DNA of 64,000 bases from Candidatus Shapirobacteria bacterium (GCA_022837635.1 JALHFY010000002.1:69055-133054), one strand, 5' to 3'. Positions 21,112 to 62,262 are shown, counted from the first letter of the stretch. Notes: generated by a model from the letters alone, not told the origin. Numbers and translations are program-made.

Positions 21112-21669
21112 TTACTCGCGACAACAGTCAAGAATTTTGCCGATGATGTTACTGACTTTGCCTAGAAAATCGGATTTTTTGTAGGTGATGGGGGTATCAA
21201 AACCCTTCCCCATCCCTTCCCTTGACAGGGCAGGGAGATTTTTATTTTTTATTAAACCTAAATTAAGGCCCCAGAAGAGATTGTAGAGGTGGTAGGATTT
21301 CTCAAAAAATTTATGAGCCGATTTATGATCACCTTTGGTTTGGGCCTTGGTGCCAACTTCAAAAAGTCGCATGGAAGCGGCCAAAAGATGTTTACTGGTA
21401 CACCAAAGCTCCCCTTCTGGATTCTTGACAATCAATTTCATTAATTCTTTACGCATTTCTCGAGCTTCGTTGAGGATATTGAAATATTTGATTTTGCCGG
21501 TTTTGTTGCCGGTAAAAAACAAATGCTCTTCGATACTGATGAGATTCATAATAGCCAAAGACAAATCTTCATCGGAACTGAGATCTAATTTATGACCGGC
21601 TTCGGCAGTTTTAACCTTATCCATAAAATTTTTAAGATTAAGATTGGAGAGATGTTGATTTTTTTTCAT
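21112..21669 (-). CDS. Hypothetical protein
   Basis: ORF only. Confidence 0.3.
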   Translation of the reverse strand: MKKNQHLSNLNLKNFMDKVKTAEAGHKLDLSSDEDLSLAIMNLISIEEHLFFTGNKTGKIKYFNILNEAREMRKELMKLIVKNPEGELWCTSKHLLAASMRLFEVGTKAQTKGDHKSAHKFFEKSYHLYNLFWGLNLGLIKNKNLPALSREGMGKGFDTPITYKKSDFLGKVSNIIGKILDCCRE

Positions 21670-22163
21670 AGCTTAAAAGCCAACTTAAAAAACAAGGTAA
21701 TTAGTAAAAGTGAAGCTAAAGGAATGGCCACTTTAGCATAAGGAAAAGGAGTTTTGTTGCCATTTTTAGCCTTAATGTAGGGATAAAACCAATTGGCGAA
21801 AAACAAGGTCAAGAGACCGATGGTGGTACCAAAAACGAGTTTGTCGATACCCAAAAGAGTGTTGCCGGGAGCGCCGATTTGATCGGTAATTTTGAAATAA
21901 ATCAACACTGTGAGGTATAAGAGAAGAGAGACAAGGTAGGGATTTTGAAAAATTTTGGGAGTGGCTTTGGTGGCTAACCAATAGGCAATGGCAGTACTCA
22001 GGGCGGAAAGCCACAAGGAAGCAAGAAAATCGTCGATACCTAATTTTTGGGCCAAAAGCATACCGCCGCCGACAGTGACAATACAGACGGGACATTGGGC
22101 CTGGACGGGAGAAGTCAGTAACCAGAAACTAAAAACTAGAATAAAAGCAGAAAGAAAAAGCAT
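21666..22163 (-). CDS. Hypothetical integral membrane protein
   Basis: Multiple TM helices. Confidence 0.35.
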   Translation of the reverse strand: MLFLSAFILVFSFWLLTSPVQAQCPVCIVTVGGGMLLAQKLGIDDFLASLWLSALSTAIAYWLATKATPKIFQNPYLVSLLLYLTVLIYFKITDQIGAPGNTLLGIDKLVFGTTIGLLTLFFANWFYPYIKAKNGNKTPFPYAKVAIPLASLLLITLFFKLAFKL

Positions 22164-23384: not shown

Positions 23385-23437
23385 GAATGAATTATAAAGA
23401 AACCAGAAACCAGAAACTAGAAACAAGAATTAAGATG

Positions 23438-24358
23438 TTAAGTAAGGTCGTCGATGTCGATTGCAGAAATGGTTTTGTTATCAGCCAGATGTCGCAGACC
23501 AATATTCATGTCGGTAAAACTATCTTTGATGTTGGAAAAAGCATTTAGATAAGTTTGGGTTTGGGTAACATAACCCATAACTAAAACCAAATCAGAAATA
23601 TCTTTTTCACCCTGAAGAACGGCAAAAACTAGATAGACCAGGATAAAAAAGTAGAAAATGACAGAAGCACCCTGTAGGAAATTCCATTCCTTAAAAGACC
23701 AGTTGGTAATCCGTCGGAAATGACGATTGTAGGAAGTTTGCTCTAAGTCAAAGTCATTATCTGCCTGCATTTTGGCGTAATAAGCCTCAGTTTTAGAGTT
23801 TTGAATATCGCGCAGATGTGAATAGCGCTGGGTAGTGAAATAATCAATAAAGTAATAAATGAGAATATAGGCAAAATTGATAACAAAGGCAGGAAAATCA
23901 ATGACAAATAAAATTAAAGGAATGAAAATCAATGAGACTAAACTGTCAATACCGGGTTGTTTGATGAGGTTGAGAGTGGTGGCAGCAGCATCAGAGAAGT
24001 TGCGAACAGCTTGGATGGTAACTGAACGTTCAGTTTTGGTAGCAGGATGGTGATCTAAAAGAAAGAAATTGTGAATATCCAAACTGAGTTTACTGATGAG
24101 ATATTCCAATTTGGAAATAGACAAAAGACGAAGATAATTATCAACCAAGCGAGACAGGAGAATCAGAAATAAGGTGATTGAAACTAAAGAAAAAGAAGCT
24201 TTAATTTCCAACAATCTAATAATCCTAGAATAAAGGTAAATGGTAATTAGTGGAAAAATAGCGGAAATAAAGCGAACAAGTGCCCAAAAAGCGAGAGCGG
24301 AGCGGTCATGAACAATTTTAAGTAAAAACTTAAAAGCTTTACGAGTAGCAGAGTGCAT
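23438..24358 (-). CDS. ABC-exporter transmembrane domain protein without nucleotide-binding domain
   Basis: Six-TM ABC type-I exporter-like topology; ORF ends where an NBD would begin. Confidence 0.4.
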   Translation of the reverse strand: MHSATRKAFKFLLKIVHDRSALAFWALVRFISAIFPLITIYLYSRIIRLLEIKASFSLVSITLFLILLSRLVDNYLRLLSISKLEYLISKLSLDIHNFFLLDHHPATKTERSVTIQAVRNFSDAAATTLNLIKQPGIDSLVSLIFIPLILFVIDFPAFVINFAYILIYYFIDYFTTQRYSHLRDIQNSKTEAYYAKMQADNDFDLEQTSYNRHFRRITNWSFKEWNFLQGASVIFYFFILVYLVFAVLQGEKDISDLVLVMGYVTQTQTYLNAFSNIKDSFTDMNIGLRHLADNKTISAIDIDDLT

Positions 24359-24426
24359 GAATTCATTATAGATAAAGAAAACAGAAACTAGAAACTAGAG
24401 ACTAGAATTGAGTTAAAATAAAAGTT

Positions 24427-27500: not shown

Positions 27501-27564
27501 AGGATATTATAAAAGATACCAGAAACAAGATACTAGAAATTAGAAATTAAGGTAGAATTTAATA

Positions 27565-28500
27565 ATGGAACAGCATCCGATTCCACAGCAAATCAGTTCC
27601 TACGAGTTCAAATTGGTAGGAGACATGACGCTGAAACAATTTGGAAAGGCGGCCGGGGGAATAATTTTGGCGGTGCTAATAAACACGACAGTTTTGCCTT
27701 TTTTTATAAAATGGCCACTAATGTTGATATCAGCAGTGGGAGGATTAGCACTGGCGTTTTTACCTTATCAAGATAGACCACTAGAAACTTGGATTGGAGC
27801 TTTTTTGAAGTCAATATATTCACCAACCGTATTTATTTATAAAAAGAAAAAGCCGGAAAACTGGTTGGATATTGACTTGACAAAAAAAATTGAAAATAAA
27901 GAGGAGGAAAAAATTGAAGTACCACAGAAGGAAGAAAGAAAAGTAAAAGAATTTATCGAGTCACTGCCGTCAGTAGAACGAGAGAGACGAGTTAAAGAGG
28001 ATTTGAAAACAGAAGAAGTGGAAAAAATTGCGGAAAAAATGGAGGAGAAGGTAAAAGAGAAACTAGAAACGAGAAAACAGAAACCAGAAATAAAACAAGA
28101 GGAGGAAACGGGGGACAAGACAAAGGGTATGGGAGTGGAGAGTCGACCCGTGGGACCTAAATTAGACTTAAAAACTCAAAAATTAGAGGCGACAGGAGAT
28201 GCGGTTTTTGGCAGTATTCCCATGCCTAGTATTCCAGAAACGCCTAATGTCTTGGTGGGAATGGTTTTGAGCACTGATAATAAAATTGTGGAAGGGGCAA
28301 TTGTGGATTTGCAAGATAAAAGTGGTAATTCAGCTAGGGTCTTAAAAACCAATCAGTTAGGTCAATTCAAAACGCTAACACCATTAAGTCCAGGAAAATA
28401 CTTAGTAGTCACGGAAAAAGAGGGCTTAAAGTTTGATCGAGTCGAAATAGAATTAGATGGAAAAATCGTGCAACCCTTAAAAATTATCGCCAAAGCTTAA
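27565..28500 (+). CDS. Membrane protein with KE-rich linker (T4SS-cluster associated)
   Basis: Two TM helices, then a charged low-complexity segment containing a heptad minisatellite. Confidence 0.35.
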   Translation: MEQHPIPQQISSYEFKLVGDMTLKQFGKAAGGIILAVLINTTVLPFFIKWPLMLISAVGGLALAFLPYQDRPLETWIGAFLKSIYSPTVFIYKKKKPENWLDIDLTKKIENKEEEKIEVPQKEERKVKEFIESLPSVERERRVKEDLKTEEVEKIAEKMEEKVKEKLETRKQKPEIKQEEETGDKTKGMGVESRPVGPKLDLKTQKLEATGDAVFGSIPMPSIPETPNVLVGMVLSTDNKIVEGAIVDLQDKSGNSARVLKTNQLGQFKTLTPLSPGKYLVVTEKEGLKFDRVEIELDGKIVQPLKIIAKA

Positions 28501-37526: not shown

Positions 37527-38888
37527 TTAGAGTGAATTTTTGATTTGGTTGATAACTTGAGAAAGTTGTGGAAAAGTTTGAAGGTCGGCAGTAATTTTAT
37601 CTCGAGCATGCATAATACTAGTATGATCTCGACCACCTAAGAGATTACCAACTTCTTTTAAGGGAAGGTTGAGTTCGGTTAAAAGCAGGTAAGCGGTGAT
37701 ATGGCGAGCGTTAGCAATGTCTTTTTTACGAGAAGGACCGGTTAATTCTCCAGTTTTTAGATTAAAAAATTTAGCACAAACAGAAATGAGGTGGCGAGCA
37801 TTAACTTTGGAAGAAGGAGAAGAAAAGGCGGCACTAGTGGGACTACCTGGGTTACCTAAAAAATGACTAACAAAATCAACATCGACTAGTTTATGGTTTT
37901 GAGCTAAGCTGATAACAGAAATGTCTTGAATTTTGCCTTCAATATCACGAATATTGGAATTGAGATTATCGGCTAAAAATTGAACTGCTTCAAAAGTGAG
38001 GTCTATCCCCCGCTCTTGAGCCTTTTGTTGAATAATAGCCGAGCGCATTTCCAAATCAGGGGGTTGAATATCAACAGTTAAACCACCCATAAAACGAGAG
38101 ACTAGACGGTCTTCAAGATCTTTAATATCACTGGGTTTGCGATCAGAGGTAAGAATGATTTGTTTGCCAGCTAAATGCAAAGCGTTAAAAGTATGGAAAA
38201 ATTCTTCTTGAATATATTCTTTACCAGCTAAGAATTGGACATCATCGACTAAGATACAATCAAGTTGACGGTATTTATTTTTAAATTGAGCGATAGATTT
38301 ACTTTTAAGGGAGGTAATTAATTCATTACCAAAGGTTTCAGCAGGAAAATACTTAATTTTGAATTCAGGATTATTTTTTAAGAGTTCGTGGCCGACGGCT
38401 TGCATGAGATGGGTTTTGCCAACACCAACTCCACCCCAAAGAAAGAAAGGGTTATAGGAAAGACCGGGATTTTTAAGAATACCTTGGGCAGCAGCATAGG
38501 CAAAATTATTACTGTTACCAACAATAAGATTGTCAAAAGTATAACGAGGGTGAAGACCAGCATTACTAAAAGAAATAGTAGAAACTTTAGGTTGATAGGA
38601 AAAAAGAGGAGTAGAGGCAGTAGAAGGAGTATCTGGGTTGATGATATCTTGAACCACAAAATGAAGAGAGTTACTGCTTTTAGTTTGATTATCAAGGGCG
38701 TTTTTGAAAAGCTGATAATAACGTTTTTGATTAAGATCGCAAAGATAGGAGCTGGTACAGGCGATGGTGGCTTGATGATCAACTAAAGAAATTAACTGGG
38801 TTTTGACGACAAAGGTTTGATAAACAGCGGGAGCCAAGACAATCCGAAGTTCTTCTTGAGTGTTTTTCCAAAGTTGAGCTAAATCCAT
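37527..38888 (-). CDS. dnaA: Chromosomal replication initiator DnaA
   Basis: AAA+ Walker A GGVGVGKTHLMQA; C-terminal domain IV; 453 aa. Confidence 0.95.
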   Translation of the reverse strand: MDLAQLWKNTQEELRIVLAPAVYQTFVVKTQLISLVDHQATIACTSSYLCDLNQKRYYQLFKNALDNQTKSSNSLHFVVQDIINPDTPSTASTPLFSYQPKVSTISFSNAGLHPRYTFDNLIVGNSNNFAYAAAQGILKNPGLSYNPFFLWGGVGVGKTHLMQAVGHELLKNNPEFKIKYFPAETFGNELITSLKSKSIAQFKNKYRQLDCILVDDVQFLAGKEYIQEEFFHTFNALHLAGKQIILTSDRKPSDIKDLEDRLVSRFMGGLTVDIQPPDLEMRSAIIQQKAQERGIDLTFEAVQFLADNLNSNIRDIEGKIQDISVISLAQNHKLVDVDFVSHFLGNPGSPTSAAFSSPSSKVNARHLISVCAKFFNLKTGELTGPSRKKDIANARHITAYLLLTELNLPLKEVGNLLGGRDHTSIMHARDKITADLQTFPQLSQVINQIKNSL

Positions 38889-39044: not shown

Positions 39045-39092
39045 ATTTGGAATGGGTCAAATAATTAAAGGTAGGTGTGGTAAAATTTCTAC

Positions 39093-39242: not shown

Positions 39243-39251
39243 AAACTAGTT

Positions 39252-39766: not shown

Positions 39767-39770
39767 CCTC

Positions 39771-40553: not shown

Positions 40554-40575
40554 ATTATTGTGTTAAAATCGCCAC

Positions 40576-41052
40576 ATGGATAATAAAGCTAGAAACGAAA
40601 AAATCTTGAATTTGACCTGCGAAATGTTGGGGAAAATTAATTATGAAGTGGAAAATGCGTTTGTAGAAGATATTCCTGGAGAGGCAGAAGAAAACCAAGT
40701 TTTGGTGAGTGTAACTGTCCCCCAACCCGGTGGATTAATTGGGTTTCGAGGTCGAAACATGTCGGCACTACAACTAGTGTTGTCGTTGGCGGTTAAGAAA
40801 AAGTTGGGTGAGTGGGTAAGAGTGGTTTTAGATATAAATAATTATCGAGAAGAGCAAAAAGTAAGATTAGAAAAAATGTCTAGAGATTTGGCACAAAAAG
40901 TGTTGGAAACCGGCAAAGAGGTACATATGGCCAACATGAGTTCTTACGAGAGAAGAATTTGTCATATGGTGTTGACGGAAATTGAGGGAATAACTTCGGA
41001 TTCTGAAGGTGAGGGTGAAGAAAGACATATTGTGATAAAAAAATTACAATAA
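40576..41052 (+). CDS. jag: Jag/KhpB-like RNA-binding protein (KH + R3H)
   Basis: C-terminal R3H (YERRICHMVL); gene order after yidC. Confidence 0.7.
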   Translation: MDNKARNEKILNLTCEMLGKINYEVENAFVEDIPGEAEENQVLVSVTVPQPGGLIGFRGRNMSALQLVLSLAVKKKLGEWVRVVLDINNYREEQKVRLEKMSRDLAQKVLETGKEVHMANMSSYERRICHMVLTEIEGITSDSEGEGEERHIVIKKLQ

Positions 41053-41196
41053 CCAAAAAACCTGCCTCGCCGGCAGGCAGGCAAATCTCAAACTCTTTGT
41101 AATTTGAATAATTGGACATTGTTTGTTTCTTGTAGATTTGGTTATTGGAGCTTGTTTGTATCTTGTGATTTTGGTTATTGGAATTTTAAGTGTGGT
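41044..41196. repeat. Composite intergenic repeat (hairpin head plus two ~37-bp tandem units), related to 62143-62262
   Basis: Shares caaatctcaaactct..gtaatttg and ttgtttgtatcttgtgattttggttattggaattt with 62183-62262. Confidence 0.8.
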
Positions 41197-41206: not shown

Positions 41207-42400
41207 GTGGAGAGATTTTGGACATTTTTATGGTTGTTGTTGGTGCCCACACAGTTGGGAAAACATTTTTGGTTAACCGAGAGTTATGTAGCAGGGATTA
41301 AGGTTGACTATTTGTCGATTATTTTATATTTGACAGATATGGTGTGGTTGGGGTGGGTGTTTAGCTTAAAAAAAGAAAGGAAGAAAAATAAGATTGGGAA
41401 AATTTTGGCGATATTATTGGTTATTTTGGTAAACGTGTGGATGGCTGAAGCGAGATGGGTGGCAGTGTATAGGTGGTTGAGAATAGGGCAATGGGTAGTT
41501 ACAGTCTGGTTGGTGGCTGAAAATAAAGAGAAAATTAAGGAAGTTTTACTAAAAGTGGTGCCGATATGGATATTGATAGAGGTGTTTTTGGCAGCATCTC
41601 AGGTGGCTAAAGGTGGCAGTTTAGAGGGTATTTGGTACTGGCTAGGCGAACGACGTTTTAGTTTTGGGAGTGTGGGAATTGCGCAAATGCGCTGGGGTAA
41701 TGAGGCGGCAATACGAGCTTACGGAACTTTTTCACACCCTAATTCATTGGCGGGATTTTTGTTATTGGTGTGGGTGTGGTGGAAAGAAGAAACCCGCCTA
41801 CCGGCGGGTAAACGAGAAACAAGAATATGGTATTGGGTGGTGAATTGGTCGGCAATATTGGGAATAATTTTAACGGGGAGTAGAACAGTGTGGGTGTTGG
41901 CATTATTGACATGGATATTAGAAACAAGAAACAAGAAACTAGAAACAAGAAGAATTTTGGGCAGAATATTAGTAGTATTAGGAGTGGGGGCAATGGTGTT
42001 GGGATTGCTGGGACGGGAATATGAGTTAAAGAGTTTTTTGGGTGGCTGGGATAGTCAAAGTTGGCAAAAAAGAATGAGTTTGAACATGTCAGCTTTAGAG
42101 ATGATGGCCGACTCCCCTATTTTCGGAGTGGGAGCAGGAAATTTTACTAAGAGATTGGGAGAATACCAGAAAGGAAGTTTTTACTGGTTGCAGCCAGTTC
42201 ATAATATTTTGTTGTTGGCTTTAAGTGAGACAGGAATAGTGGGAGCAATGATGTTTTGGAAGTTTTTTAAGAGGTACTGGAAAAAGATTGACTGGTGGAT
42301 GGGGATGATAATAATGGTAACAGGGTTGGTGGATCATTATTGGCTAACACTACCACAAAATACTTGGCTTCTGGCCATAATTTTAGGGATTTTGGGGTAG
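41207..42400 (+). CDS. O-antigen ligase/polymerase-like membrane protein
   Basis: Polytopic membrane protein with loop motif GSRTVWV; contains an in-frame heptad minisatellite at 41918-41955. Confidence 0.45.
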   Translation: MERFWTFLWLLLVPTQLGKHFWLTESYVAGIKVDYLSIILYLTDMVWLGWVFSLKKERKKNKIGKILAILLVILVNVWMAEARWVAVYRWLRIGQWVVTVWLVAENKEKIKEVLLKVVPIWILIEVFLAASQVAKGGSLEGIWYWLGERRFSFGSVGIAQMRWGNEAAIRAYGTFSHPNSLAGFLLLVWVWWKEETRLPAGKRETRIWYWVVNWSAILGIILTGSRTVWVLALLTWILETRNKKLETRRILGRILVVLGVGAMVLGLLGREYELKSFLGGWDSQSWQKRMSLNMSALEMMADSPIFGVGAGNFTKRLGEYQKGSFYWLQPVHNILLLALSETGIVGAMMFWKFFKRYWKKIDWWMGMIIMVTGLVDHYWLTLPQNTWLLAIILGILG

Positions 42401-43783: not shown

Positions 43784-46732
43784 ATGGAAGGGCAATTTAA
43801 TGGAGCAATGATAATTGGAGATAATTTTGTGGCCCAAAAATTGCGGGAGAGGTTGCAGCAGGATGAAATCAGAGTCTGGTGGGACAACGAAGAAATGGTG
43901 GAAAATGCGGCTTATATTTTTGATTTTGAAGGGAAGGAGTTGGTGTGGGAGAGTTTGAACAAGAAACAGAAATTAGTGCTGGTATTGGTAGATGATTTTT
44001 CAAAATTACCTGAGATTAGGGGAAAATTACAGAAAAGTGAGTTAAATTGGCGAATATTGTTGGCGGAAAATGTTTATGGAGAGGGAATGAGTGAAGAGGG
44101 TTTTATCGGGGAAGCCTTGGCATTGGCAGCGAGAAATAAAAACTTAATTTTGCCTGATTTAGGGAGAAATTTTTCCTTGGTTGCAGCAGGTGATGTGGTG
44201 GAAGCGGCTTTACGGGCTTGTTTTGTGTCGGGAACTCAGGGAAAAATTTTGAAAATATCGGGAAAAGAAACTGATTCTTTGGTGGTAGCCAAGGTACTTT
44301 TTGATGAGGCTAAAATGACCAAAGAGGAGGTAATTCAAGATCAGGAAATAGTGGTGTCGAAGCTGGTGGAACTGGATTTGGAGGGAGTGGAGGAAGCGGA
44401 AAGTTGGTTAAGATGGCAACCAAGTATAGAGTTTAGGGAGGGGGTAAAAGGAGTAATTCAAGAATTTGTGGCGAGAGTGGACGAAGAGAGTCGGAATAAA
44501 AAAAGAGAGAAGGTGAAGAAACCCGCCTCCGCCCCGCCGCTGCGGGGCTACGGCGTGGTAAAACAAAAACGAGAGAGGATGTATGAAGTGGTGACAAATC
44601 CACCCCCATCCCCTCCTTTGAAGAAAGGAGGGGAGAAAGTTGTCTCCATGGACTCGATAAATCCACCCCCATCCCCTCCTTTGAAGAAAGGAGGGGAGAA
44701 AGCTAATTTTGAGGCGGAAGAACCAATGACCTTTGAGAGTTTGAGAAAAAAGTGGGTGGTTAATAAGGATATGCAGATTAAGCAGGAGGCGATGACTAAG
44801 GAGGATGAATCATTGATTGATAAATTTGATTTGTTGAATTTGAAGGAGAAAAATCCACCCCCATCCCCTCCTTTGAAGAAAGGAGGGGAGAGTGATCAAA
44901 AAACTAAAATTGGAAAGAAGCCAACAATAGGTAAATATGTGTGGTGGGGGGTGGGTGGAGTGGCGGTGTTGTTGGCGGGATGGTGGTTGGTGAATGCAGT
45001 GAGTTTACTATTATTACCCAAGAGGATTGTAGCGGCTCAAGAAATGGTGATTAAAGGTGAGTACAATCAGGCTCAGAAGGAAGCTGAAAAATTAAAAAAG
45101 AGAAGTGAAAATTTACGGCAAATATTTTCCGGAGGAGAGGTAGGAGCCTTGTTGAGAGCGGGAGAGGAAGGACTGAGCTTATTGGAACTATCGGCTGATT
45201 TAGCACAAAGTAGTGACCGAATTAGAGAAGGGGTGTTTACGGATAAAAAAATTGATTTAAGAGTAGAAATGGAAAAAGGTCAAAAATATGCCAGGGAGGC
45301 AGTGTCGAGAATGGGTTTATTGCAAGGTAGATTGTCGGGACAATGGGAAAAAATTCCCAAAACTATGAGAGGGAAAATAATTGAATTGAGAGATAAGTTG
45401 GCGGTGGAGAGACGAAAGGCGGAAATATTAGCAGAAGTTTTACCAAGTATGGGACAAGTTTTAGGGATAGATGGTCAGAGACGGGAATATTTAGTGTTGT
45501 TGCAAAATGAAAGTGAATTAAGGCCAGGTGGAGGCTTTATAGGCTCCTATGCGATTTTAAGTTTTGAAGATGGTAAATTTATTAATTTTGAAGTACAGGA
45601 CGTTTATGAGGCGGATGGGCAGCTTAAAGGCCATGTGGAGCCACCAGAGGAAATAAAAAAACATTTAGGAGAGGCGGGGTGGTTTATGAGAGATGCTAAT
45701 TGGCAAGCTAGTTTTCCAGCGGCGGCCAAAGATGTTGTTTGGTTTTTGGAAAAGGAAACCGGGCGTAAAGTGGATGGGGTGATTGGGATAAATTTAGCGA
45801 TGGTTAAGGCGATATTGAAGGTAAGCGGTGAGTTGTTTGTGCCCGATTTCAAGGAAAAAGTTAATACTGATAATTTATATGAAAAAGCGGAATATTACTC
45901 GGAAAATAACTTTTTTCCGGGTTCGGTACAGAAGGCCAGTTTTTTGGGAGGAGTGAGCAAGCAATTGATGGAAGAGATTAAAAACATGAAAGTGGAAAAA
46001 GGAGAGGCACTATTATCGGCAATATTGGAAGTGTTGGAAAAAAATGAGATGCAAATAGCTCTAAATGAAGCGCAATCGGCAGCAGTGATGCTAAATTTAG
46101 GTTGGGATGGATCGATTTATGATGGTAAGTGTAGTAGTGACAGATGTTTGGCTGATTATCTTTATTTAGTAGAGGCGAATTTTGGGGTAAACAAGGCCAA
46201 TTATTTTATAAACCGAAGGATAAACCGAAGCGTGGAAATATTGCCAAATGAAGTTAAAAACAATTTAAGAATTAGTTATGAAAATACGGCTAAAAGTAAT
46301 TCTTTTCCGGGAGGAGATTATAAGAATTATTTAAGAGTATATATGCCAAAAGAAGCTCAATTAACGGAGGTGGCAGTGACTGAAGAAGGAAAAGGGAGGC
46401 GGGTGGTTGGAGGTACAGATTTGGTAATCAAGGAAATTTTAGGTAAAAAGGAAGTAGGTTTTTTGGTGACGACAGAGGTAAGTAAAAAGGCGGAAGTTGA
46501 GGTGAAATATAAGCAAACTATTAATTTGGCTCAAGGAGATAAGTTTTCTTATTTAAGTTATTGGCAAAAACAAAGTGGTTATGGGAGAACGGGTGTAAAA
46601 ATGACAGTGAATGTACCTGCGGGTTGGGTGGTGAGTGGAGTGGAACCAGCGGCGGAGGTGTGGAATAATCAGATTATATTTGAAGGAGAATTGGAAAAAG
46701 ATTTGAGAATGGGGGTGGAGATATCTCAATGA
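43784..46732 (+). CDS. Large DUF4012-type surface/envelope protein with in-frame GC-rich repeats
   Basis: Central TM (WWGVGGVAVLLAGWWLV); C-terminal DUF4012-like region (LRPGGGFIGSYAILSFEDGKF...); three NPPPSPPLKKGGE units. Confidence 0.5.
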   Translation: MEGQFNGAMIIGDNFVAQKLRERLQQDEIRVWWDNEEMVENAAYIFDFEGKELVWESLNKKQKLVLVLVDDFSKLPEIRGKLQKSELNWRILLAENVYGEGMSEEGFIGEALALAARNKNLILPDLGRNFSLVAAGDVVEAALRACFVSGTQGKILKISGKETDSLVVAKVLFDEAKMTKEEVIQDQEIVVSKLVELDLEGVEEAESWLRWQPSIEFREGVKGVIQEFVARVDEESRNKKREKVKKPASAPPLRGYGVVKQKRERMYEVVTNPPPSPPLKKGGEKVVSMDSINPPPSPPLKKGGEKANFEAEEPMTFESLRKKWVVNKDMQIKQEAMTKEDESLIDKFDLLNLKEKNPPPSPPLKKGGESDQKTKIGKKPTIGKYVWWGVGGVAVLLAGWWLVNAVSLLLLPKRIVAAQEMVIKGEYNQAQKEAEKLKKRSENLRQIFSGGEVGALLRAGEEGLSLLELSADLAQSSDRIREGVFTDKKIDLRVEMEKGQKYAREAVSRMGLLQGRLSGQWEKIPKTMRGKIIELRDKLAVERRKAEILAEVLPSMGQVLGIDGQRREYLVLLQNESELRPGGGFIGSYAILSFEDGKFINFEVQDVYEADGQLKGHVEPPEEIKKHLGEAGWFMRDANWQASFPAAAKDVVWFLEKETGRKVDGVIGINLAMVKAILKVSGELFVPDFKEKVNTDNLYEKAEYYSENNFFPGSVQKASFLGGVSKQLMEEIKNMKVEKGEALLSAILEVLEKNEMQIALNEAQSAAVMLNLGWDGSIYDGKCSSDRCLADYLYLVEANFGVNKANYFINRRINRSVEILPNEVKNNLRISYENTAKSNSFPGGDYKNYLRVYMPKEAQLTEVAVTEEGKGRRVVGGTDLVIKEILGKKEVGFLVTTEVSKKAEVEVKYKQTINLAQGDKFSYLSYWQKQSGYGRTGVKMTVNVPAGWVVSGVEPAAEVWNNQIIFEGELEKDLRMGVEISQ
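44517..44558. repeat. Repeat family B copy (intragenic)
   Basis: gaaacccgcctccgccccgccgctgcggggctacggcgtgg. Confidence 0.75.
44597..44637. repeat. Repeat family A copy (intragenic)
   Basis: aatccacccccatcccctcctttgaagaaaggaggggagaa. Confidence 0.8.
44659..44700. repeat. Repeat family A copy (intragenic)
   Basis: Identical unit. Confidence 0.8.
44852..44892. repeat. Repeat family A copy (intragenic)
   Basis: Identical unit. Confidence 0.8.
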
Positions 46733-49071: not shown

Positions 49072-49178
49072 AATCACCCCTAACCCCTCTTTGAAGAAAG
49101 AGGGGAATTTTGTGTATACTATGTAATAATATTTACATTAATTTTCCCCTCCTTTGGTCAAAGGAGGGGATGGAGGGG
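49071..49178. repeat. Two family-A-related hairpin repeats in the ftsH 3' intergenic
   Basis: cccctctttgaagaaagagggg (49085-49106) and cccctcctttggtcaaaggagggg (49147-49170). Confidence 0.75.
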
Positions 49179-49191: not shown

Positions 49192-49605
49192 ATGAAATAT
49201 CAGTGTCCGGTGGAAATTAGAATGAGAAATGGAGCCATCAAATATTTAGAAGAATTAAAGAGATTAGCTAGGAATAATAGAAATAACCCAACTGCAGCAG
49301 AGAAAATGTTTTGGCAGGTATTGAGAAAATATCCATATACATTTTTGAGACAAAAACCTTTAGGTCGATTTATTGCTGATTTTTACTGTTCAAAATTATT
49401 ATTGATAATTGAGATAGATGGAGATTCTCATGATTTGAGAAAATATATGGACAAAGAAAGAGATGAATATTTTCAAATTAGGGGTATAAAAACAATCAGG
49501 ATTACAAATAAGCAGGTGTTAACTGGTGAAGCAGAGGGATTGATGAAAGATATTTTAAGGAGAAGGGAAAAAGAAGCGGAAAAATGGTTAAATACTTTCT
49601 TCTAA
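49192..49605 (+). CDS. DUF559/Vsr-like endonuclease-fold protein
   Basis: IADFYC...IIEIDGDSH motif typical of DUF559. Confidence 0.65.
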   Translation: MKYQCPVEIRMRNGAIKYLEELKRLARNNRNNPTAAEKMFWQVLRKYPYTFLRQKPLGRFIADFYCSKLLLIIEIDGDSHDLRKYMDKERDEYFQIRGIKTIRITNKQVLTGEAEGLMKDILRRREKEAEKWLNTFF

Positions 49606-51237
49606 TTCAATTATTCTCTGTAAGATGGCTAGGGAGCCGAGGTAGACGGGTTCGACGCCGGAGAGGGCTAGAGAGCCGGCGCCTAGGTTTTTGGCTTGGG
49701 AATAAGGCGTGTCTGAAGTGTAATTAATGATACCAATTTCAAAAGGAGCGGAATTGAGATCGACTAGGGTTGATTTGGGAGTTTGACAATCATAACTGGC
49801 TTCGGTAATAGCGGAAAGATAGGGACCACTTTCCATTTCAATAACAGTGAGGTCATTTTCGGAATATTTTCTTAAAAGCGATTCGTTTTCTAGAAAAGTA
49901 CCTAGAACCGTGACTGATTTTTGGTTGGTAAGAATAGAGCCTTGGCGATTGTTAAAAGGAAAAAAAGTATTGAAAACATTTTTGAAAATATAGGAATTTT
50001 GAGAGTGTTCATCAAAAACCAGGCGGGGAATTTGGATATCACCAATTTCGGAATTGAGAACAGCGGCTTTACCGAGGATGTAGACACCAGCGAGGTGGTT
50101 GACGTTTTCCAGGATTTTACTAAGGATATGGTAAGCGGCAAAGCCGAGAGGGTAGTCAATATTAAAAATGAGAGATTGGCTTTGAGAAATTTTTTTAGGC
50201 TTATTAATTTTGAGACGTGAATCAAACAGAGAGGAGCGAGTAAAACTATTAATAGGAATAATTTGAGCGTTAACATCCATAAAATGGTTGTTTTTAGGAG
50301 TGAGGATACCGAGGTGTTTTTGGTAGCGGTCAAATTCTTGCAGATAACGAGAGTCTTTGGTAAAAAGGCGGGAGAGATAATAAAGAAAGTCTTGGTGAGA
50401 GAGATAAGGATTGGTAGCTTGATAGTTTTTAGGAGCGTATTGAAGAAGTTGTTTTTCGTATTTAAGAGGGAAACCGGTAACTAAATTTCTGAGAGAATGG
50501 GAGTTGCTACTGACAAAATAAACTTTAGTTTTAGTAAAGTTGTATTTTTTTAGATGTTGTTGGGTGAGACCGGTCCACCATTGTTGGGTACTTTTGGCAT
50601 AATCAACCCAACTACCGGCTAAAAGACGAAGACGGAGATCGCGGGGAGATTTATAGATTCTTTGCAGACGTAGTCGCCAACGACGACCAAGAGCGGTGAT
50701 GATTTTATCCCAATCAGCAGAAGAGAGTTGGGTTAATTTTAGAAGTTCACTAGGGTTGTTGTTTAAGGCAGTTTTGAAATCACTGTATTTAGGGTAGGTG
50801 GAAGTGATGAGATGGTGAAATTTATTCCATTCGATTTGATAGGCGATAGCCAAATTAACCAAGTCATCAACGTCAGTAACGGAACTGATAAAGGCAGCTA
50901 ATTGACCGGTTTTGCGGTTAAAATAGTGACTACGACGGCGGGCTCGAGAGGGGCAACGATGCCAGGAGAGAATGTCAATAAAACCAGCTTTAGTGAAGGT
51001 TTGGGGATCTTGGCCCATGATGATAGTATTGACGTGGTCGATACTTTTAGGAAGACGGAGAAGAGAATAGACAACAGCAGAAGGGTCAACACGAGTGGAA
51101 TCAGTAGCAAAAGGATGTAAAATTGTGCCCATTTTTAGGTAAGAATTGGTGAGGGAATGGACAGTGACTTCGAGGTTAGATTTAAGGGCGGAGCGGTAAG
51201 TGCGGAGGTGGAGGGCAATGGCTTCGATTGAGGGCAT
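49588..51237 (-). CDS. Hypothetical protein with possible C-terminal nucleoside-phosphorylase-like (PNP/MTAN-fold) region
   Basis: C-terminal LGKAAVL..EIGDIQIP..VFDEH...TVLGTF...LTVIEMESGPYLSAI resembles the PNP_UDP_1 pattern; weak, by eye. Confidence 0.3.
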   Translation of the reverse strand: MPSIEAIALHLRTYRSALKSNLEVTVHSLTNSYLKMGTILHPFATDSTRVDPSAVVYSLLRLPKSIDHVNTIIMGQDPQTFTKAGFIDILSWHRCPSRARRRSHYFNRKTGQLAAFISSVTDVDDLVNLAIAYQIEWNKFHHLITSTYPKYSDFKTALNNNPSELLKLTQLSSADWDKIITALGRRWRLRLQRIYKSPRDLRLRLLAGSWVDYAKSTQQWWTGLTQQHLKKYNFTKTKVYFVSSNSHSLRNLVTGFPLKYEKQLLQYAPKNYQATNPYLSHQDFLYYLSRLFTKDSRYLQEFDRYQKHLGILTPKNNHFMDVNAQIIPINSFTRSSLFDSRLKINKPKKISQSQSLIFNIDYPLGFAAYHILSKILENVNHLAGVYILGKAAVLNSEIGDIQIPRLVFDEHSQNSYIFKNVFNTFFPFNNRQGSILTNQKSVTVLGTFLENESLLRKYSENDLTVIEMESGPYLSAITEASYDCQTPKSTLVDLNSAPFEIGIINYTSDTPYSQAKNLGAGSLALSGVEPVYLGSLAILQRIIELEESI

Positions 51238-51250
51238 GGATACATTATAG

Positions 51251-51327
51251 AGAAACTGGATACAAGAAACTAGAAACGAGAAAACAGAAACTAGATATAA
51301 GAAACAAAAAATTAGAAATAAGAATCA
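51251..51327. repeat. 7-bp minisatellite (AGAAACW)x11 in divergent promoter region
   Basis: agaaact ggataca agaaact agaaacg agaaaac agaaact agatata agaaaca aaaaatt agaaata agaatca. Confidence 0.85.
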
Positions 51328-51356
51328 AAAAGAGGGATTTTTGATATAATTGAGGC

Positions 51357-55160: not shown

Positions 55161-56609
55161 TTACCAAGATGCGGGGCGAAGTAAAGAGCGCATTTCTTGA
55201 TACAAAAGATCAGAACGGAAACCGGGATCAACGACATTAGCTTTATCGTTGGCAGGGGTTTTACTGGAAAAACTTTTAGTCAGTAATTGTTTTTTGTCTA
55301 GGGAATCTGAGGGAATCATATTGGAAAAGGCTTGTTCACTAATTTGAACATTTTCCACAATCTGATTATCGTAGGTACTAGTGGTAGGAATAGAGACGCT
55401 TTTACTAAAGTTTTCGCCAGCTAAAACTCGTTTAATTAAACCTTTAACGAAGGTGGCTAGATTTTTTCTTTGAGGTTTGTCTCGGGAAACGTATGGACTA
55501 ACTTTACTATCATTACAAATATCGGTATTATCAAGAGGTTTTTGTTGACTAGGGTTGACAAAACTGAGGGTGGTTGACTGAGGTGAATAGGCAGCGGCGG
55601 CATTGGGTAGGGTGCGGTTGTGAGTTTCGTCAACAGGATTGATAGGATGGTCATTGGCAGTGTCGTAACCATTATAATTAGTAACCACGACTCGACTATT
55701 GACGTTACCTTTGGGGATGTAATTGAGTTGTTTATAGAAAAGAAAATAATCCTCTTTTGGTAGAGGAACAAAGCTTTTGCCGCCAGAACGTTGTGAATAA
55801 CAGCCGTAGGTACCGCAAGAACCACTATAGTGACTGAGGACTGGGGTGAGAATTTTTTGAGGAAAGTTTTCGGGTGGAGAATCGGGGGTGGAATAGTAAA
55901 GCTTTTCATTTTGAAGTCCAAAAATAAGTTCACTGAGATAAACAGGTCGACAGGAGCTGGTTTTAGTTTCATCTTGAGTCATTTCCATACAAGTACCTTG
56001 GCAGTCCCAAGCGATTTGATAGTCTTGAGTGACAGTATCAAGTTGTTGACTGTTATTTAAGGACATGGCGGCTTGGGTAAGGAATTGACTGCGATAGTAA
56101 TTAATTTGGGTGGTGGGCAAGGAGCGCAAAGAAGCACTAGATCCAGTCATTTCGAGGCTAAGGAAGCTGTTTTTAGCCCTGGCTTCGGTACACTTGATGC
56201 TGCCTCTAGCAAAGAAAGATTGGAAGTTTCGGTAATATTCGTTGGAGAGGTTATTAAGATCAATTTGGCCATCTAAGTCTTGGGCATCGTAATCTTGGTA
56301 GATGTTTTCTGTGTATTTATTACCATTGACGTCAGTTTTTACAACTTCAGTTTTATGATCGTCGGCAGACCAACTTCTTCCGGCTTCACCATGACCACTA
56401 CAAGTGACTGTGTCTTCAGTCAAGGTGTTGGAATAAGAATCGTCGCTAGGGATTTCTGGGGCAATGGCTTGGTCGGGAGCTTTACGTTCAGTTTGATCTT
56501 TAATTTGTAGGGAAGGGAAGAGTTTTTGCCAAAAGCTAGCGGCATAAGCTGGAGAAGTAGTAAAAAAGAGAAAAAATAAAGTAGAAAATATAAAAATTAG
56601 TTTTTTCAC
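55161..56609 (-). CDS. Secreted Cys-rich protein (possible pilus-associated adhesin)
   Basis: Signal peptide MKKLIFIFSTLFFLFFTTSPAYA; about 12 Cys. Confidence 0.4.
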   Translation of the reverse strand: MKKLIFIFSTLFFLFFTTSPAYAASFWQKLFPSLQIKDQTERKAPDQAIAPEIPSDDSYSNTLTEDTVTCSGHGEAGRSWSADDHKTEVVKTDVNGNKYTENIYQDYDAQDLDGQIDLNNLSNEYYRNFQSFFARGSIKCTEARAKNSFLSLEMTGSSASLRSLPTTQINYYRSQFLTQAAMSLNNSQQLDTVTQDYQIAWDCQGTCMEMTQDETKTSSCRPVYLSELIFGLQNEKLYYSTPDSPPENFPQKILTPVLSHYSGSCGTYGCYSQRSGGKSFVPLPKEDYFLFYKQLNYIPKGNVNSRVVVTNYNGYDTANDHPINPVDETHNRTLPNAAAAYSPQSTTLSFVNPSQQKPLDNTDICNDSKVSPYVSRDKPQRKNLATFVKGLIKRVLAGENFSKSVSIPTTSTYDNQIVENVQISEQAFSNMIPSDSLDKKQLLTKSFSSKTPANDKANVVDPGFRSDLLYQEMRSLLRPASW

Positions 56610-56998
56610 GGATTCCCGGGGATTTGGAATATAGTAACGTTAACACCGGTAAATTTTTGAATGAAATTAAGAATTAGCCAGGAAGCAATGACACCAACTA
56701 GACCGATGATGGCCATAGTGAGGGTGGAAGAAGCGGAGGCTAGTTTTTTTTCATCACCACCACTAGTGAGGTATTTGAAACCACCGCTAATGAACATAAA
56801 GAAAAAAGCCAGACCGGCAATAACTACTATTATTTGGAGAATGTTGGCAAAAAGACATTCAAAACCTTGGATGGTAGCGACATCACCTTGGGTAACGCAG
56901 CGACCTGTCCAAGTGCCATCGGAAGCAACTTGAGCTAGAGCTGGATGCACAAATAAGAAACAAGAAACTAGAAACCAGAAACAAGAGAGTTTTTTCAT
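56606..56998 (-). CDS. VirB2/TrbC-like pilin paralogue 1
   Basis: Signal peptide; TM1; loop SGGDEKKLASASST; TM2 IIGLVGVIASWLIL. Start set at MKKLSCF. Confidence 0.55.
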   Translation of the reverse strand: MKKLSCFWFLVSCFLFVHPALAQVASDGTWTGRCVTQGDVATIQGFECLFANILQIIVVIAGLAFFFMFISGGFKYLTSGGDEKKLASASSTLTMAIIGLVGVIASWLILNFIQKFTGVNVTIFQIPGNP

Positions 56999-57021
56999 AA
57001 CTACATTATAGTATAAAGTCC

Positions 57022-58805: not shown

Positions 58806-58928
58806 ATTGATACCTAGATTATATAACAAAGATAGGAAATAATGGTGTTATAATACGCCACCTTATCAAGCTAGTGACTAGTTATTAGTAATTAGTTAAT
58901 AGTTTTATAATTAGATATTAAAACAGAA

Positions 58929-59750
58929 ATGAGAAAAGCTGCCATCTCTATTTTGTTGTTGGCATTGATGTTGATGTCCAACAGAGCAACTTTAGCTAGA
59001 AATAGATTAATTAGTCCCAGTCCAGAACCAACAGTATTACCAACGGCTACACCAGTACCTGAGTCGGTGAATATAACGGAAGCATACGATAAAAAATCAG
59101 AAAATATCAGCCCGTTATTGTCACTAGCGGTAGAGAAGGGAGTACCGGAAAATACGATAGTACTATTGTTATTATTGCCATTGGTGGCGACTCTAGTATC
59201 TTTTTTGCATTATGTGGTAGGAGTATCCGGTTATGGGATTTTTATGCCGACGATGGTATCGGTGGCGATGTTGGCCACCGGTTTAAGAACAGGTTTAGCC
59301 TTGTTTGTGGTAATTTTAGGATCGGGACTGATGAGTAACAGGTTGTTGAAGAGATTAAAATTACATTTTTGGCCAGCTCGGACAATTACTTTATTGATGA
59401 TTGCTTTAACGACTTTGATAACTATGTCAATAGCGGCTAGTTTAGGTATATTAGAAGTGGGTAAAATTTCTATTTTTCCGATGTTATTTATGATTTTATT
59501 GACAGAAGAATTTATCAGAACTCAGTTGGCTAAAAGCAAAAAGGAAGCAATGAGATTGACTTGGGGAACTTTGTTGTTGGCAACTATTGGTACCTTGACG
59601 ATGAGGATTCAAATGCTTCAGGATTTTGTGTTGAGGTATCCAGGTTGGGTAATACTATTAGTAATAGTTATTAACGTGATGGTGGGAAGTTATAGTGGAA
59701 TTAGAATGACAGAGATAAAGAGGTTTAAGGGAGCAATTAGAAAAAAGTAA
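58929..59750 (+). CDS. Polytopic (about 7 TM) membrane protein, first gene of the ATP-grasp module
   Basis: Signal/anchor, then about 7 TM helices; precedes the ATP-grasp/retropepsin fusion by 32 bp. Confidence 0.4.
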   Translation: MRKAAISILLLALMLMSNRATLARNRLISPSPEPTVLPTATPVPESVNITEAYDKKSENISPLLSLAVEKGVPENTIVLLLLLPLVATLVSFLHYVVGVSGYGIFMPTMVSVAMLATGLRTGLALFVVILGSGLMSNRLLKRLKLHFWPARTITLLMIALTTLITMSIAASLGILEVGKISIFPMLFMILLTEEFIRTQLAKSKKEAMRLTWGTLLLATIGTLTMRIQMLQDFVLRYPGWVILLVIVINVMVGSYSGIRMTEIKRFKGAIRKK

Positions 59751-59782
59751 TTAGTTAATAGTAAATAGTTAGTAGTAAAATA

Positions 59783-61165: not shown

Positions 61166-62141
61166 AATAGCAGTCTTTTTTGGAGGTAAAATCAGTCGAC
61201 ACTTAGTGTTGGTGCGAAAAGCGGCAAAAAAGTTAGGAGTAGAACTGGATTTAATTTCGTATAATAAGGTTTTTTTTGATACTAAAAGTGGGCGGGTAGA
61301 ACTAAAAGGCAAAGATGCTGCGGATTATGATGTACTTTTTTTTAGAACTACGGGTAAACATTGGGAAGAGGTAGATTTAATATTGGAGAGTATTAAAGAA
61401 ACTGGAAAAAGGCCAGTGATTGTAGATCCGATAGTAGAACATGGAAAACCGAGTTTTGCTAAAAAGGCGTGGCAAATGTTGAGATTGACGGAGGCGGGAA
61501 TAGAAGTACCGAGAACTATTTATGGATCATTGTGGACGTTGTATGAGTGTATGTTAAATTTAAACTCTCGAAATGATTTTTGTGCCTCCTGTGAATGTGT
61601 CACCACGTTCAACGGAGTCAAAAAATCATCTTCTTCGAGTTTAAATTTAAATTTCCCAGTTATAGTTAAGGGTAGTGGGGGGAATAGAGGCGAGAGGGTG
61701 TTTAAGGCTAATAATTTAGAGGAGTTGGAAAAGTTGGTGAGGGAGTTGCGAAAATCGGAGACTGAGGAGGGGAGGCGGTATATGCTCCAGGAGTATATTG
61801 AAAATGATGGTGATTATCGGGTTTTGGTGATAGGTGATAAGGCTCTGGGGGCGATGAAACGCAGTAGTCAGAGTCGAAATGAATTTAGAAACAATTATAG
61901 TGCTGGAGGTAAAGTAGAAGTGGCGCAATTACCTCAGGAGATTTATGATTTAGCAGTAAGGGCGGCTAAAAGTTGTGGAATAGCGATTGCTGGGGTGGAC
62001 GTGGCTTTTCGAGACAAGGAAAGAAAGAGACCGGTGGTGTGGGAGGTGAACAAAGGCCCACAATTCAAAGGTTTTATGAAAGCGACGGGGATAGATGCCC
62101 CGGCTGAAATTGTTAAATATTTAGTATCTATTAAAAAATAA
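61158..62141 (+). CDS. RimK-family ATP-grasp ligase
   Basis: YRVLVIGDKALGAMKRSS...RNNYSAGG...GVDVAF; typical RimK. Confidence 0.7.
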   Translation: MTKIAVFFGGKISRHLVLVRKAAKKLGVELDLISYNKVFFDTKSGRVELKGKDAADYDVLFFRTTGKHWEEVDLILESIKETGKRPVIVDPIVEHGKPSFAKKAWQMLRLTEAGIEVPRTIYGSLWTLYECMLNLNSRNDFCASCECVTTFNGVKKSSSSSLNLNFPVIVKGSGGNRGERVFKANNLEELEKLVRELRKSETEEGRRYMLQEYIENDGDYRVLVIGDKALGAMKRSSQSRNEFRNNYSAGGKVEVAQLPQEIYDLAVRAAKSCGIAIAGVDVAFRDKERKRPVVWEVNKGPQFKGFMKATGIDAPAEIVKYLVSIKK

Positions 62142-62142
62142 C

Positions 62143-62262
62143 CAATAACCAAAAAACAATTTCCAAACAAATTACAAATAACAAATCTCAAACTCTTGGT
62201 AATTTGGAATTTGAAAAATTGGAAATTGTTTGTATCTTGTGATTTTGGTTATTGGAATTTAT
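62143..62262. repeat. Intergenic repeat related to 41044-41196
   Basis: caaatctcaaactcttggtaatttgg ... ttgtttgtatcttgtgattttggttattggaattt. Confidence 0.8.

Follow-up and report, generated by a model that had tools for sequence, protein, structure and literature searches.

A stretch of 64,000 nucleotides from a Candidatus Shapirobacteria genome (Candidate Phyla Radiation (CPR), Microgenomates group), hereafter the window, holds tandem arrays of a 7-bp unit, AGAAACN, the longest of which lies upstream of a DUF6909 protein gene. On balance, and with moderate confidence, we regard the AGAAACN arrays as a single family, specific to its lineage, of the 7-bp-period minisatellites, or variable-number tandem repeats (VNTRs), that occur more widely in Candidatus Shapirobacteria; in this reading the arrays propagate themselves and are tolerated near gene starts and in protein linkers. 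Within the time that strains take to diverge by ~1% in sequence, arrays lengthen, shorten and are replaced; the same unit recurs at many unlinked sites of one genome, and the purine-rich strand of the arrays is found on the G-rich strand of the chromosome. They are retained at permissive places only, namely just upstream of a leaderless −10 box, in the first ~20 codons of secreted proteins and in loops or linkers of membrane and type IV secretion system (T4SS) proteins. In our best reading the arrays change promoter spacing and protein length over evolutionary time and do not provide a fast phase switch.

Heptad arrays in the window

A preliminary description of the window, made from its sequence, had listed seven such arrays. 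All seven are found where they had been placed, and Tandem Repeats Finder assigns period 7 to each of them (51251–51327 and the arrays reported at 23398, 24379, 27534, 28058, 41920 and 56951; Table 1). The array at 51251–51327 had been described as strictly heptad-periodic with 11 units. The unit number stands, but the units are degenerate (on the plus strand AGAAACT, GGATACA, AGAAACT, AGAAACG, AGAAAAC, AGAAACT, AGATATA, AGAAACA, AAAAATT, AGAAATA and AGAATCA; period 7, 11.1 copies, 67% matches). Across the window arrays matches range from 67 to 92%, and most arrays have only 5 units.

By scoring for four consecutive AGAAACN units with at most three mismatches we obtained 19 matches in the seven arrays and none in 100 dinucleotide-preserving shuffles of the window; the arrays are real and far beyond chance. 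A position-wise score adds an eighth, weaker array at 22110–22140, so that the AGAAACN arrays occupy at least 8 sites in 35 kb, all of them between 22 and 57 kb of the window. In every one AGAAAC is on the plus strand; none is reversed and all units are direct. Within the unit, positions 2–6 (TTTCT) have an entropy of 0.15–0.73 bits and position 7 of 1.91 bits. The arrays at 28058 and 51265–51291 have one identical 27-mer in common, which suggests spread between sites, probably by ectopic recombination. The genome holds more than one heptad family, the eight AGAAACN arrays being accompanied by two to three arrays of a second unit type, AnTAGTn. A further heptad array, with units AATAACC/AACAAAT, lies at 62137–62192 upstream of a plus-strand gene.

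The window translates well with the standard bacterial code (table 11). Its G+C content is 30–42%, the first 10 kb being lower (0.30–0.32) and having a weaker skew. GC skew is unusually strong and positive throughout (0.03–0.49 over the whole window, 0.13–0.49 from 12 kb on), and A exceeds T on the plus strand whatever the orientation of the genes. In the relatives the mean absolute GC skew is 0.33. The orientation of the arrays follows this strong strand asymmetry and not the direction of the genes.

Arrays abut leaderless-type promoters

A match to TATAAT in at least 5 of 6 positions is located 4–8 nt before the candidate start in 30 of the 67 predicted genes (~45%), compared to 4.3% of all ATGs, from which we infer that transcripts are largely leaderless. 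Exact TATAAT-N5–7-ATG sites number 11 in the window and are nearly all at predicted starts (e.g. 15142, 15451, 22517 and 31594); an array lies directly upstream in four of these and directly downstream in one. If promoters are leaderless, the intergenic arrays would cover roughly −12 to −50 or further and would not themselves be transcribed. The window arrays that span this region are AT-rich, with G and C in each unit, and have no recognisable −35 box; as read from the promoter sequences, the hexamers at the −35 position within the arrays have no likeness to TTGACA.

Read on the minus strand, each of the four intergenic arrays runs into a perfect TATAAT 5–6 nt before the ATG of the minus-strand gene. 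The four promoters are GTTTCTT-T-TATAAT-TCATTC-ATG (fpg), TTTTCTT-TATC-TATAAT-GAATTC-ATG (a 306-aa protein gene), GGTATCT-TT-TATAAT-ATCCT-ATG (5'-3' exonuclease) and GTTTCTC-TATAAT-GTATCC-ATG (DUF6909; gene at 49588..51237, minus strand), in the last of which the proximal unit GTTTCTC abuts TATAAT. Thus four arrays start 0–4 bp upstream of a −10 box, and two others sit within the first ~20 codons. The plus-strand partners (trxB, a PrgI-like gene and a 682-aa gene) have a −10-like hexamer 6–7 nt before the ATG. Window promoters that lack an array often have TGn (extended −10).

All four intergenic arrays had been thought to lie between divergently transcribed genes. This is so for those at 24376, 27514 and 51251, but at 23398 the neighbouring open reading frame (ORF) 23438..24358 is on the minus strand, co-directional, and ends at 23438, so that this array is upstream of fpg only. 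The protein of that ORF gave no Pfam hit, and the 'ABC-TMD' label proposed for it is unsupported.

At such promoters the effect of an array may be mainly geometric, in that it would set the spacing of back-to-back −10 boxes and supply AT-rich upstream DNA. A change in copy number would then be predicted to tune the transcription of both flanking genes rather than to act as an on/off switch.

Copy number differs between strains and is stable within a clone

Arrays were compared between the window and related metagenome loci, which carry L numbers here. The array that precedes DUF6909 comprises 11 units in the window, 1 in L124–127 (95% protein identity), 2–3 in L130/131 (90% identity), 5 in L225 and ~21 in L129, where a 49-bp higher-order period points to block duplication. 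In L128 there are no units at all, and a GC-rich hairpin is found in their place. Both −10 boxes and the GTATCC-ATG leader are kept in all DUF6909 orthologous regions compared, and the distance between the back-to-back −10 boxes varies from ~31 to ~165 bp.

Three of these loci, L128, L129 and L225, are conspecific (98.9–99.8% DNA identity). An alignment of L129 with L225 has one gap and three breaks; the gap and two of the breaks fall within heptad arrays, and the remaining break has its end at an L225 array. In the same three strains the array upstream of DUF4012 has ~8 (L128), ~5 (L129) and ~21 units (L225), and a loop of the Wzy_C-like protein is occupied by a 12-unit array in two of them and by a GC-rich palindrome in the third, the ORF being open in all. 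The length variation expected of a minisatellite is hence seen among strains that are ~99% identical, both at DUF6909 (0, 5 and ~21 units) and at DUF4012. The higher-order periods and nested alleles argue for expansion and contraction by slippage or unequal exchange. L124 and L223 (82–90% identity) are too divergent to inform on repeat dynamics.

Exact-protein look-ups recovered the clone of the window itself on 3 contigs around DUF6909 and on 14 around trxB and the pilin cluster. These 17 contigs, from ~11 samples, are 99.86–100% identical to the window and have no indel in any array; they are consensus assemblies, in which rare length variants would be below detection. Sequencing runs with this clone include SRR32846290, SRR23289483, SRR18493545, SRR30200684, ERR13624441, SRR23724708, SRR31357139, SRR32846286, SRR27911144 and SRR27911154. 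The arrays are hypervariable at ~1% divergence and stable within the clone.

Independent short-read contig ends cluster beside arrays (23438–23466, 24348, 27577 and 57017), so that the repeats fragment assemblies of this genome. At the end of one SRR23289483 contig (L296, 1–37) a sequence like a ~54-nt repeat described below replaces the region of the 23398 array, together with 8 substitutions in the tail of the adjacent gene; the explanation may be a co-existing variant or a junction in the assembly graph.

Coding copies are read in three frames

The reported in-frame copies in coding DNA were all recovered, at 28058 in a linker of the PrgI-like protein, at 41920 in the Wzy_C-like protein and, on the minus strand, at 56953 in the signal peptide of a T4SS pilin (PF18895). 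The last of these begins ~10 nt after the leaderless ATG and supplies the hydrophobic core of a canonical signal peptide (MKKLSCFWFLVSCFLFVHPALA, followed by Q). The copy at 22110 likewise encodes a hydrophobic N-terminal stretch, here of a 165-aa membrane protein. In the Wzy_C-like protein the 41920 array corresponds to ~aa 238–249, inside the Pfam match, where relatives have QETRNEKQELKG.

Translation of an array passes through all three frames in succession, because the length of three heptads is 21 nt, and the product is a 7-residue peptide repeat. When the T-rich strand is coding, the result is a hydrophobic VS.F.FL repeat; when the A-rich strand is coding, it is a charged ETRNxKx repeat. 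The peptide type therefore depends on the strand, which explains why the arrays that persist in minus-strand genes are signal-peptide cores and those in plus-strand genes are disordered linkers. All coding arrays seen are in frame; they keep long ORFs open, and the encoded peptide is conserved in orthologues. Frameshifted (OFF) pilin alleles were looked for in the window and in the pilin orthologues of the relatives, and none was found. An apparent frameshifted pilin case in L259 was rejected, as it proved to be a pilin gene missed by simple gene calling.

The 482-aa gene that follows the pilin starts with VKKLIFIFSTLFFLFFTTSPAYA (56520–56609, minus strand), and its DNA there resembles a decayed T-rich heptad array. 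The L128 orthologue of this gene has a clear GTTTCT array at its start (MKKVFIVSCFLFLASCFSF).

Arrays alternate with GC-rich palindromes

GC-rich palindromic elements, one of which is CCCCTCCTTTGAAGAAAGGAGGGG, are inserted in frame in the VirB4-like and DUF4012 genes of the window. Three sites hold either heptad arrays or unrelated GC-rich palindromes, depending on the strain or species: the region upstream of DUF6909, loop 1 of Wzy_C and the DUF4012 linker at ~aa 240–380. At a second variable loop of the Wzy_C-like gene (41785..41825; Table 1) relatives have a long heptad array or a different GC-rich palindrome. Such alternation is expected if both types of element arise often and survive only where they are harmless.

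The VirB4-like and DUF4012 genes both contain in-frame insertions of a perfect GC-rich palindrome, (A/T)CCCCTCCTTTGAAGAAAGGAGGGGA, which is translated there as NPPPSPPLKKGGE; the palindrome also has intergenic copies. In the window it is found at 31073–31136, 44585–44903 (3 copies) and 49082–49170 (2 copies), and in L128 at 9905–9935 and 19310–19360. It resembles the Rickettsia palindromic elements. At the exact positions of the heptad arrays of L129 and L225, strain L128 has related hairpins. The peptide KPVSAPPER.SDVARP is the product of a second GC-rich repeat (GAAACCCGTCTCCGCCCCGCCGGAGCG...), copies of which lie within the VirB4-like and DUF4012 genes (29250–29310, 31284–31344, 31455–31515 and 44499–44559). 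GAAAC precedes each copy of this second repeat, which may target the AGAAAC motif or have it in common. A short palindrome in the Wzy_C loop (41797–41812) has AGAAAC remnants on both sides.

Period 7 is conserved across Shapirobacteria

A scan with the DUF6909 alignment gave 72 Shapirobacteria-like metagenome loci (0.83 Mb). Arrays of the GTTTCT type are almost confined to relatives with at least ~59% DUF6909 identity (one exception, 56%) and are nearly always in the same chromosomal orientation. Other species have other heptads at the equivalent places. Upstream of the DUF6909 −10 box these are AATTCTT/AATTGAT, TTTAGAC, AAAAATT, AATTAGT and TAATTNN; in pilin signal peptides they are ACTTTCT, CACTATT, CATTACT and (TTGTTTC)5, with perfect arrays in L124 ((TTGTTTC)5), L240 ((ACTTTCT)4–5) and L259 ((CACTATT)4). 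One core can be reused at unlinked promoters, as for TTTAG.., found three times in L240, and ATTGA.., found three times in L236.

When ~1 Mb was scanned without bias by autocorrelation, lag 7 gave 41 arrays, and lags 5, 6, 8 and 9 gave 1, 2, 0 and 2. The conserved feature across species is the period of 7 and not the AGAAAC sequence; this point and the leaderless promoters were absent from the preliminary description. Taking near a gene start to mean at most 60 bp upstream or within the first 35 codons, 32 of 72 arrays are near a gene start, where 10.2 would be expected (maximum of 20 in 1000 random placements). Of the 72 arrays, 61 have their purine-rich strand on the G-rich strand, and the units of the remainder are near-symmetric. 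In 25 of 37 arrays the two most variable unit columns are adjacent, against one third expected; this signal is weaker under harsher end trimming.

Beyond Shapirobacteria, a scan of one genome per GTDB species for four AGAAACN units detected at least 120 loci spread over many phyla. Counts were similar for permuted-heptad controls in viral contigs (45 versus 34 and 36; the two controls overlap when N is A), so the wide spread of AGAAACN reflects generic heptad minisatellites rather than one element or family, and we do not use these broad matches to argue for homology. Among the matches listed, the GTDB bacterial loci hold 40 non-AGAAAC arrays at lag 7 and at most 8 at any other lag from 4 to 12, the loci having been preselected for a heptad array.

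In metagenome-assembled genomes of Thermoanaerobaculia (Acidobacteriota, 61–66% G+C; L043, L057, L083, L101, L110 and L117) AGAAACC/T arrays occur in inverted pairs 10–20 nt apart, several per genome, which would form long perfect hairpins. In five other loci (L007, L027, L054, L102 and L118) other heptads adjoin the AGAAAC arrays.

Minisatellites or a dedicated system

In the minisatellite reading, arrays would arise by slipped-strand mispairing or unequal exchange, and selection would leave only those in linkers, in signal-peptide cores and in intergenic DNA close to gene starts. Several points weigh against it. Simple slippage does not explain why the period is exclusively 7, why one 5-bp core is reused at many unlinked sites, or why variation is concentrated in one or two linker positions of the unit; the period, the core reuse and the core-plus-linker pattern fit a sequence-reading factor better. 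Moreover, the loci behind the statistics are orthologous regions of related genomes, so that counts are not independent, and arrays longer than ~100 bp in short-read assemblies (L129 and L225) may be mis-sized, though presence or absence and the lengths of short arrays should be reliable. A conserved core with a variable linker favours some constraint on sequence. Against a dedicated cis-regulatory role are the orientation by strand composition, the copies in protein linkers and the alternation with GC-rich insertions.

One alternative that would account for the first set of points is that the arrays are operators, in which a polymerising ribbon-helix-helix (RHH) protein similar to Omega or ParB would read one 5-bp core per 7-bp step and coat the arrays. 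Located at −12 to −50 or at +10 to +50, bound arrays would occlude RNA polymerase, and co-evolution of protein and core would explain the species-specific units. The 4–11 contiguous, gapless 7-bp units that overlap promoters have the architecture described for Omega (PMC9499535), with a conserved 5-bp core, a variable linker and no period found other than 7. The recurrence of one core at several unlinked promoters of a genome (L240 and L236) and the fact that intergenic and N-terminal coding arrays both fall within the RNA polymerase footprint are also in line with this proposal. However, Pfam gave no RHH, Omega_Repress or ParG match among 40 window proteins, small ORFs included, and the units, which are all direct, take their orientation from the chromosomal strand and not from the gene. 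Some arrays lie deep in genes, in the Wzy_C loops and in the linker of DUF4012, at places where a promoter would not be expected; a single genome can hold several unit types; and conspecific strains have 0, 5 or 21 units, or a GC-rich hairpin, at one promoter. The flanking genes (fpg, trxB, exonuclease, pilins and DUF6909) form no obvious regulon. On balance we think operator function unlikely.

We hold a more general form of this idea, that the heptad periodicity is itself selected or generated, to be similarly speculative. Here a dedicated system would write or read DNA in 7-bp steps in Shapirobacteria, and perhaps in other heptad-dominated phyla. One possibility is a chromosomal Omega-like polymerising protein that co-evolves with promoter-proximal arrays; another is a templated generator that seeds one 5+2 unit at many sites. 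If such a system existed, the repeated co-option of arrays as signal-peptide cores and disordered linkers would amount to the birth of coding sequence de novo from promoter DNA.

It is improbable, in our judgement, that the arrays are an intrinsic promoter element, that is, DNA resembling an UP element or substituting for the −35 box, whose periodic A/T tracts with narrow minor groove would serve promoters without TGn. The four minus-strand promoters with an abutting array do have a perfect TATAAT and no TGn, and many array-less ones have TGn; the arrays start within 0–4 bp of the −10 box; the proximal GTTTCTC-TATAAT is kept where the rest of the array is absent (L124 and L130); and all species-specific units have an A/T run of at least 3–4 bp. 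Nevertheless L124, with one unit, and L128, with unrelated sequence, keep both the −10 box and the gene, which makes the array dispensable. The 7-bp period is out of helical phase and does not resemble the UP consensus, and some arrays lie inside genes or downstream of a start codon.

Still more doubtful is a role as contingency loci, in which frequent slippage by one unit would, by analogy to neuO, switch pilins by frameshift or, as in hmw1A, grade promoters within a clone. As in neuO and hmw1A, 7-nt units occupy promoters and the 5' coding part of a gene, here that of surface pilins, and relatives have perfect arrays of 4–5 units in pilin signal peptides. The preliminary description had allowed for phase or length variation. 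Rapid phase variation is not supported, given the 17 same-clone contigs, in which no array has an indel, and the absence of any frameshifted allele among the sequences searched, each coding array being in frame. In addition, the window arrays are short (5 units) and the seventh base changes in almost each unit, which falls short of the near-perfect unit identity of contingency loci.

Two further candidates were rejected. A search of the window and of 10 array-bearing loci against Rfam (Rfam 15) returned only tRNAs, with no family reaching its gathering score over an array, and the intergenic arrays, being upstream of both −10 boxes, should not be transcribed, which also argues against a structured RNA. 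A miniature inverted-repeat transposable element (MITE) does not fit, as there are no common flanks, the single orientation is tied to strand composition, and variation is by internal unit number. Finally, although short-read contigs tend to break beside arrays and long arrays may be mis-sized, an artefact of assembly or sequencing, or chance low complexity of an AT-rich, purine-skewed genome, can be practically discounted, because identical arrays were assembled independently in ~11 samples, shuffles gave no matches, and coding arrays keep ORFs open with a peptide conserved in orthologues.

Relation to known repeat systems

We classify the arrays as a VNTR or contingency-like element with unusual traits: the strict 7-bp period, species-specific units, placement abutting the −10 box, three-frame reading and stability within a clone. 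Literature searches with repeat strings matched only unrelated primers, and those for heptanucleotide repeats or leaderless promoters in CPR returned no description of this feature.

In E. coli K1, neuO carries (AAGACTC)n in its 5' coding region, and hmw1A/hmw2A of H. influenzae have 7-bp promoter repeats; these repeats are perfect and long (3–53 or ~20 units), vary within a clone and change expression with copy number (PMC13001214, PMC8262952). The arrays described here are similar in the 7-nt unit, in their position in promoters or 5' coding regions of surface genes, in that three units make a 7-residue repeat, and in counts that differ between strains. They differ in the imperfect units and short arrays of the window, in their invariance across the ~11 samples of one clone, in the dispersal of one unit over many sites and in that no frameshifted allele was seen.

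Omega, the RHH ParB of plasmid pSM19035, binds arrays of 7–10 contiguous 7-bp units in which the core is conserved and the ends vary; a replicon has several such arrays, each overlapping a promoter (PMC9499535). The Shapirobacteria arrays also have at least 4 gapless contiguous units (5–11 in the window), next to or between −10 boxes. Their core is TTTCT (NTTTCTN/AGAAACN), not ATCAC (WATCACW), and their units are all direct, unlike the mixed orientations of Omega sites; they are chromosomal, occur in coding regions and are dispensable between strains, and no RHH gene was found in the window.

The Vibrio cholerae ctxAB promoter has TTTTGAT heptads whose number varies by strain (bioRxiv 10.1101/2021.05.14.444153). 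The two cases agree in having T-rich direct heptads, in strain-variable number, upstream of a promoter. The ctxAB case is a single locus in which the heptads lie upstream of a −35 box and recruit known regulators; here many loci and −10-only leaderless promoters are involved.

Mazel et al. reportedly described, in 1990, families of short tandemly repeated repetitive (STRR) heptanucleotide sequences in cyanobacteria. STRR units are GC-rich (e.g. CCCCAGT), mostly intergenic, restricted to heterocystous cyanobacteria and without a known function; we know of no report of STRR repeats as signal-peptide or linker coding sequence. They resemble the present arrays in being dispersed, multi-copy, lineage-specific tandem heptanucleotides of few unit types, and differ in that the Shapirobacteria units are AT-rich and the host is not a cyanobacterium.

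Tandem repeats of Borgs, giant archaeal extrachromosomal elements, create intrinsically disordered regions (PMC9879509). These too are fast-evolving, both intergenic and genic, and add low-complexity or disordered peptide. The units of Borg repeats vary in length, and those in genes are reported to be divisible by 3; the unit here is strictly 7 nt, and the reading frame is preserved only in steps of 21 nt.

Bacteria of the CPR have not been cultured, and very little is known of how they regulate their genes. The sequences of the promoters analysed here are direct evidence that a lineage of Microgenomates has a leaderless, −10-only promoter organisation. The arrays are the main source of structural variation between near-identical strains, and this variation concentrates at promoters, T4SS pilin signal peptides and the linkers of surface-polysaccharide and T4SS proteins, parts of the cell that likely face the host. 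They are also a natural case of a non-triplet repeat that is read in three frames and gives hydrophobic or charged modules by strand. Should a binding protein or a generator underlie the strict period, this would be a regulatory or mutational system of a new kind, and it might bear on the long-unexplained heptanucleotide repeats of cyanobacteria. In practical terms, the arrays break short-read assemblies and can be used as strain markers.

Feature coordinates and other repeats

Table 1. Heptad arrays, −10 boxes and a variable loop in the window.
Feature	Coordinates	Strand	Remarks
Weak AGAAAC-type array, 3–4 units	22110..22140	+	Encodes FILVFSFWLL (minus strand), N-terminal hydrophobic segment of 165-aa protein 21666..22163(−)
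TATAAT −10 box of fpg	23391..23396	−	6 nt before ATG at 23384; leaderless-type
5-unit array	23398..23432	+	Between stop of 23438..24358(−) and fpg promoter; last unit 1 nt from fpg −10 box
TATAAT −10 box of 306-aa protein gene	24365..24370	−	6 nt before ATG at 24358
5-unit array	24376..24410	+	Fills gap between back-to-back −10 boxes of 24358(−) and trxB 24427(+)
TAAAAT −10-like box of trxB	24414..24419	+	7 nt before ATG at 24427
TATAAT −10 box of exonuclease gene	27506..27511	−	5 nt before ATG at 27500
5-unit array with AGATAC/AGAAAC/AGAAAT variants	27514..27548	+	Between 5'-3' exonuclease 27500(−) and PrgI-like gene 27565(+)
TAGAAT −10-like box of PrgI-like gene	27553..27558	+	6 nt before ATG at 27565
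5-unit in-frame array	28058..28092	+	Encodes KLETRKQKPEI, charged linker of PrgI-like protein
Second variable loop of Wzy_C-like gene	41785..41825	+	AGAAAC remnants flank GC-rich palindrome CCCGCCTACCGGCGGG (short palindrome 41797–41812)
5-unit in-frame array	41920..41954	+	Encodes LETRNKKLETRR, loop of Wzy_C-like membrane protein
TATAAT −10 box of DUF6909	51244..51249	−	6 nt before ATG at 51237; with GTATCC-ATG conserved in close relatives (75–95% identity)
11-unit degenerate array	51251..51327	+	Between back-to-back −10 boxes of DUF6909 51237(−) and 682-aa unknown gene 51357(+)
TATAAT after TGA (extended −10)	51345..51350	+	6 nt before 682-aa gene ATG at 51357
5-unit array	56953..56987	+	Minus strand encodes hydrophobic core SCFWFLVSCFLF, signal peptide of T4SS pilin 56606..56998(−)
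TATAAT −10 box of pilin	57005..57010	−	6 nt before ATG at 56998
Heptad array, second unit type AnTAGTn	58866..58905	+	Directly upstream of TATAAT before gene 58929(+)
Second AnTAGTn heptad array	59745..59779	+	Directly upstream of ATG at 59783

Other repeats and landmarks of the window are as follows. A ~54-nt repeat (TTTGGAATTTGAAAAATTGGAAATTGTTTGTATCTTGTGATTTTGGTTATTGGA) is present at 41096–41182 and 62203–62256, upstream of the Wzy_C-like and RimK-like genes. At 37254–41052 a cluster comprises dnaA (37527..38888, minus strand), rnpA, yidD, yidC and jag, and DnaA-box-like repeats (TGTGGAAAA) adjoin the 3' end of dnaA at 37461–37524. The cluster resembles an origin region, yet GC skew is positive on both its flanks. 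A 68-nt direct repeat with 94% identity occurs at 612–679 and 5906–5973, ~5.3 kb apart, in or near glyoxalase-like and AAA-like genes.

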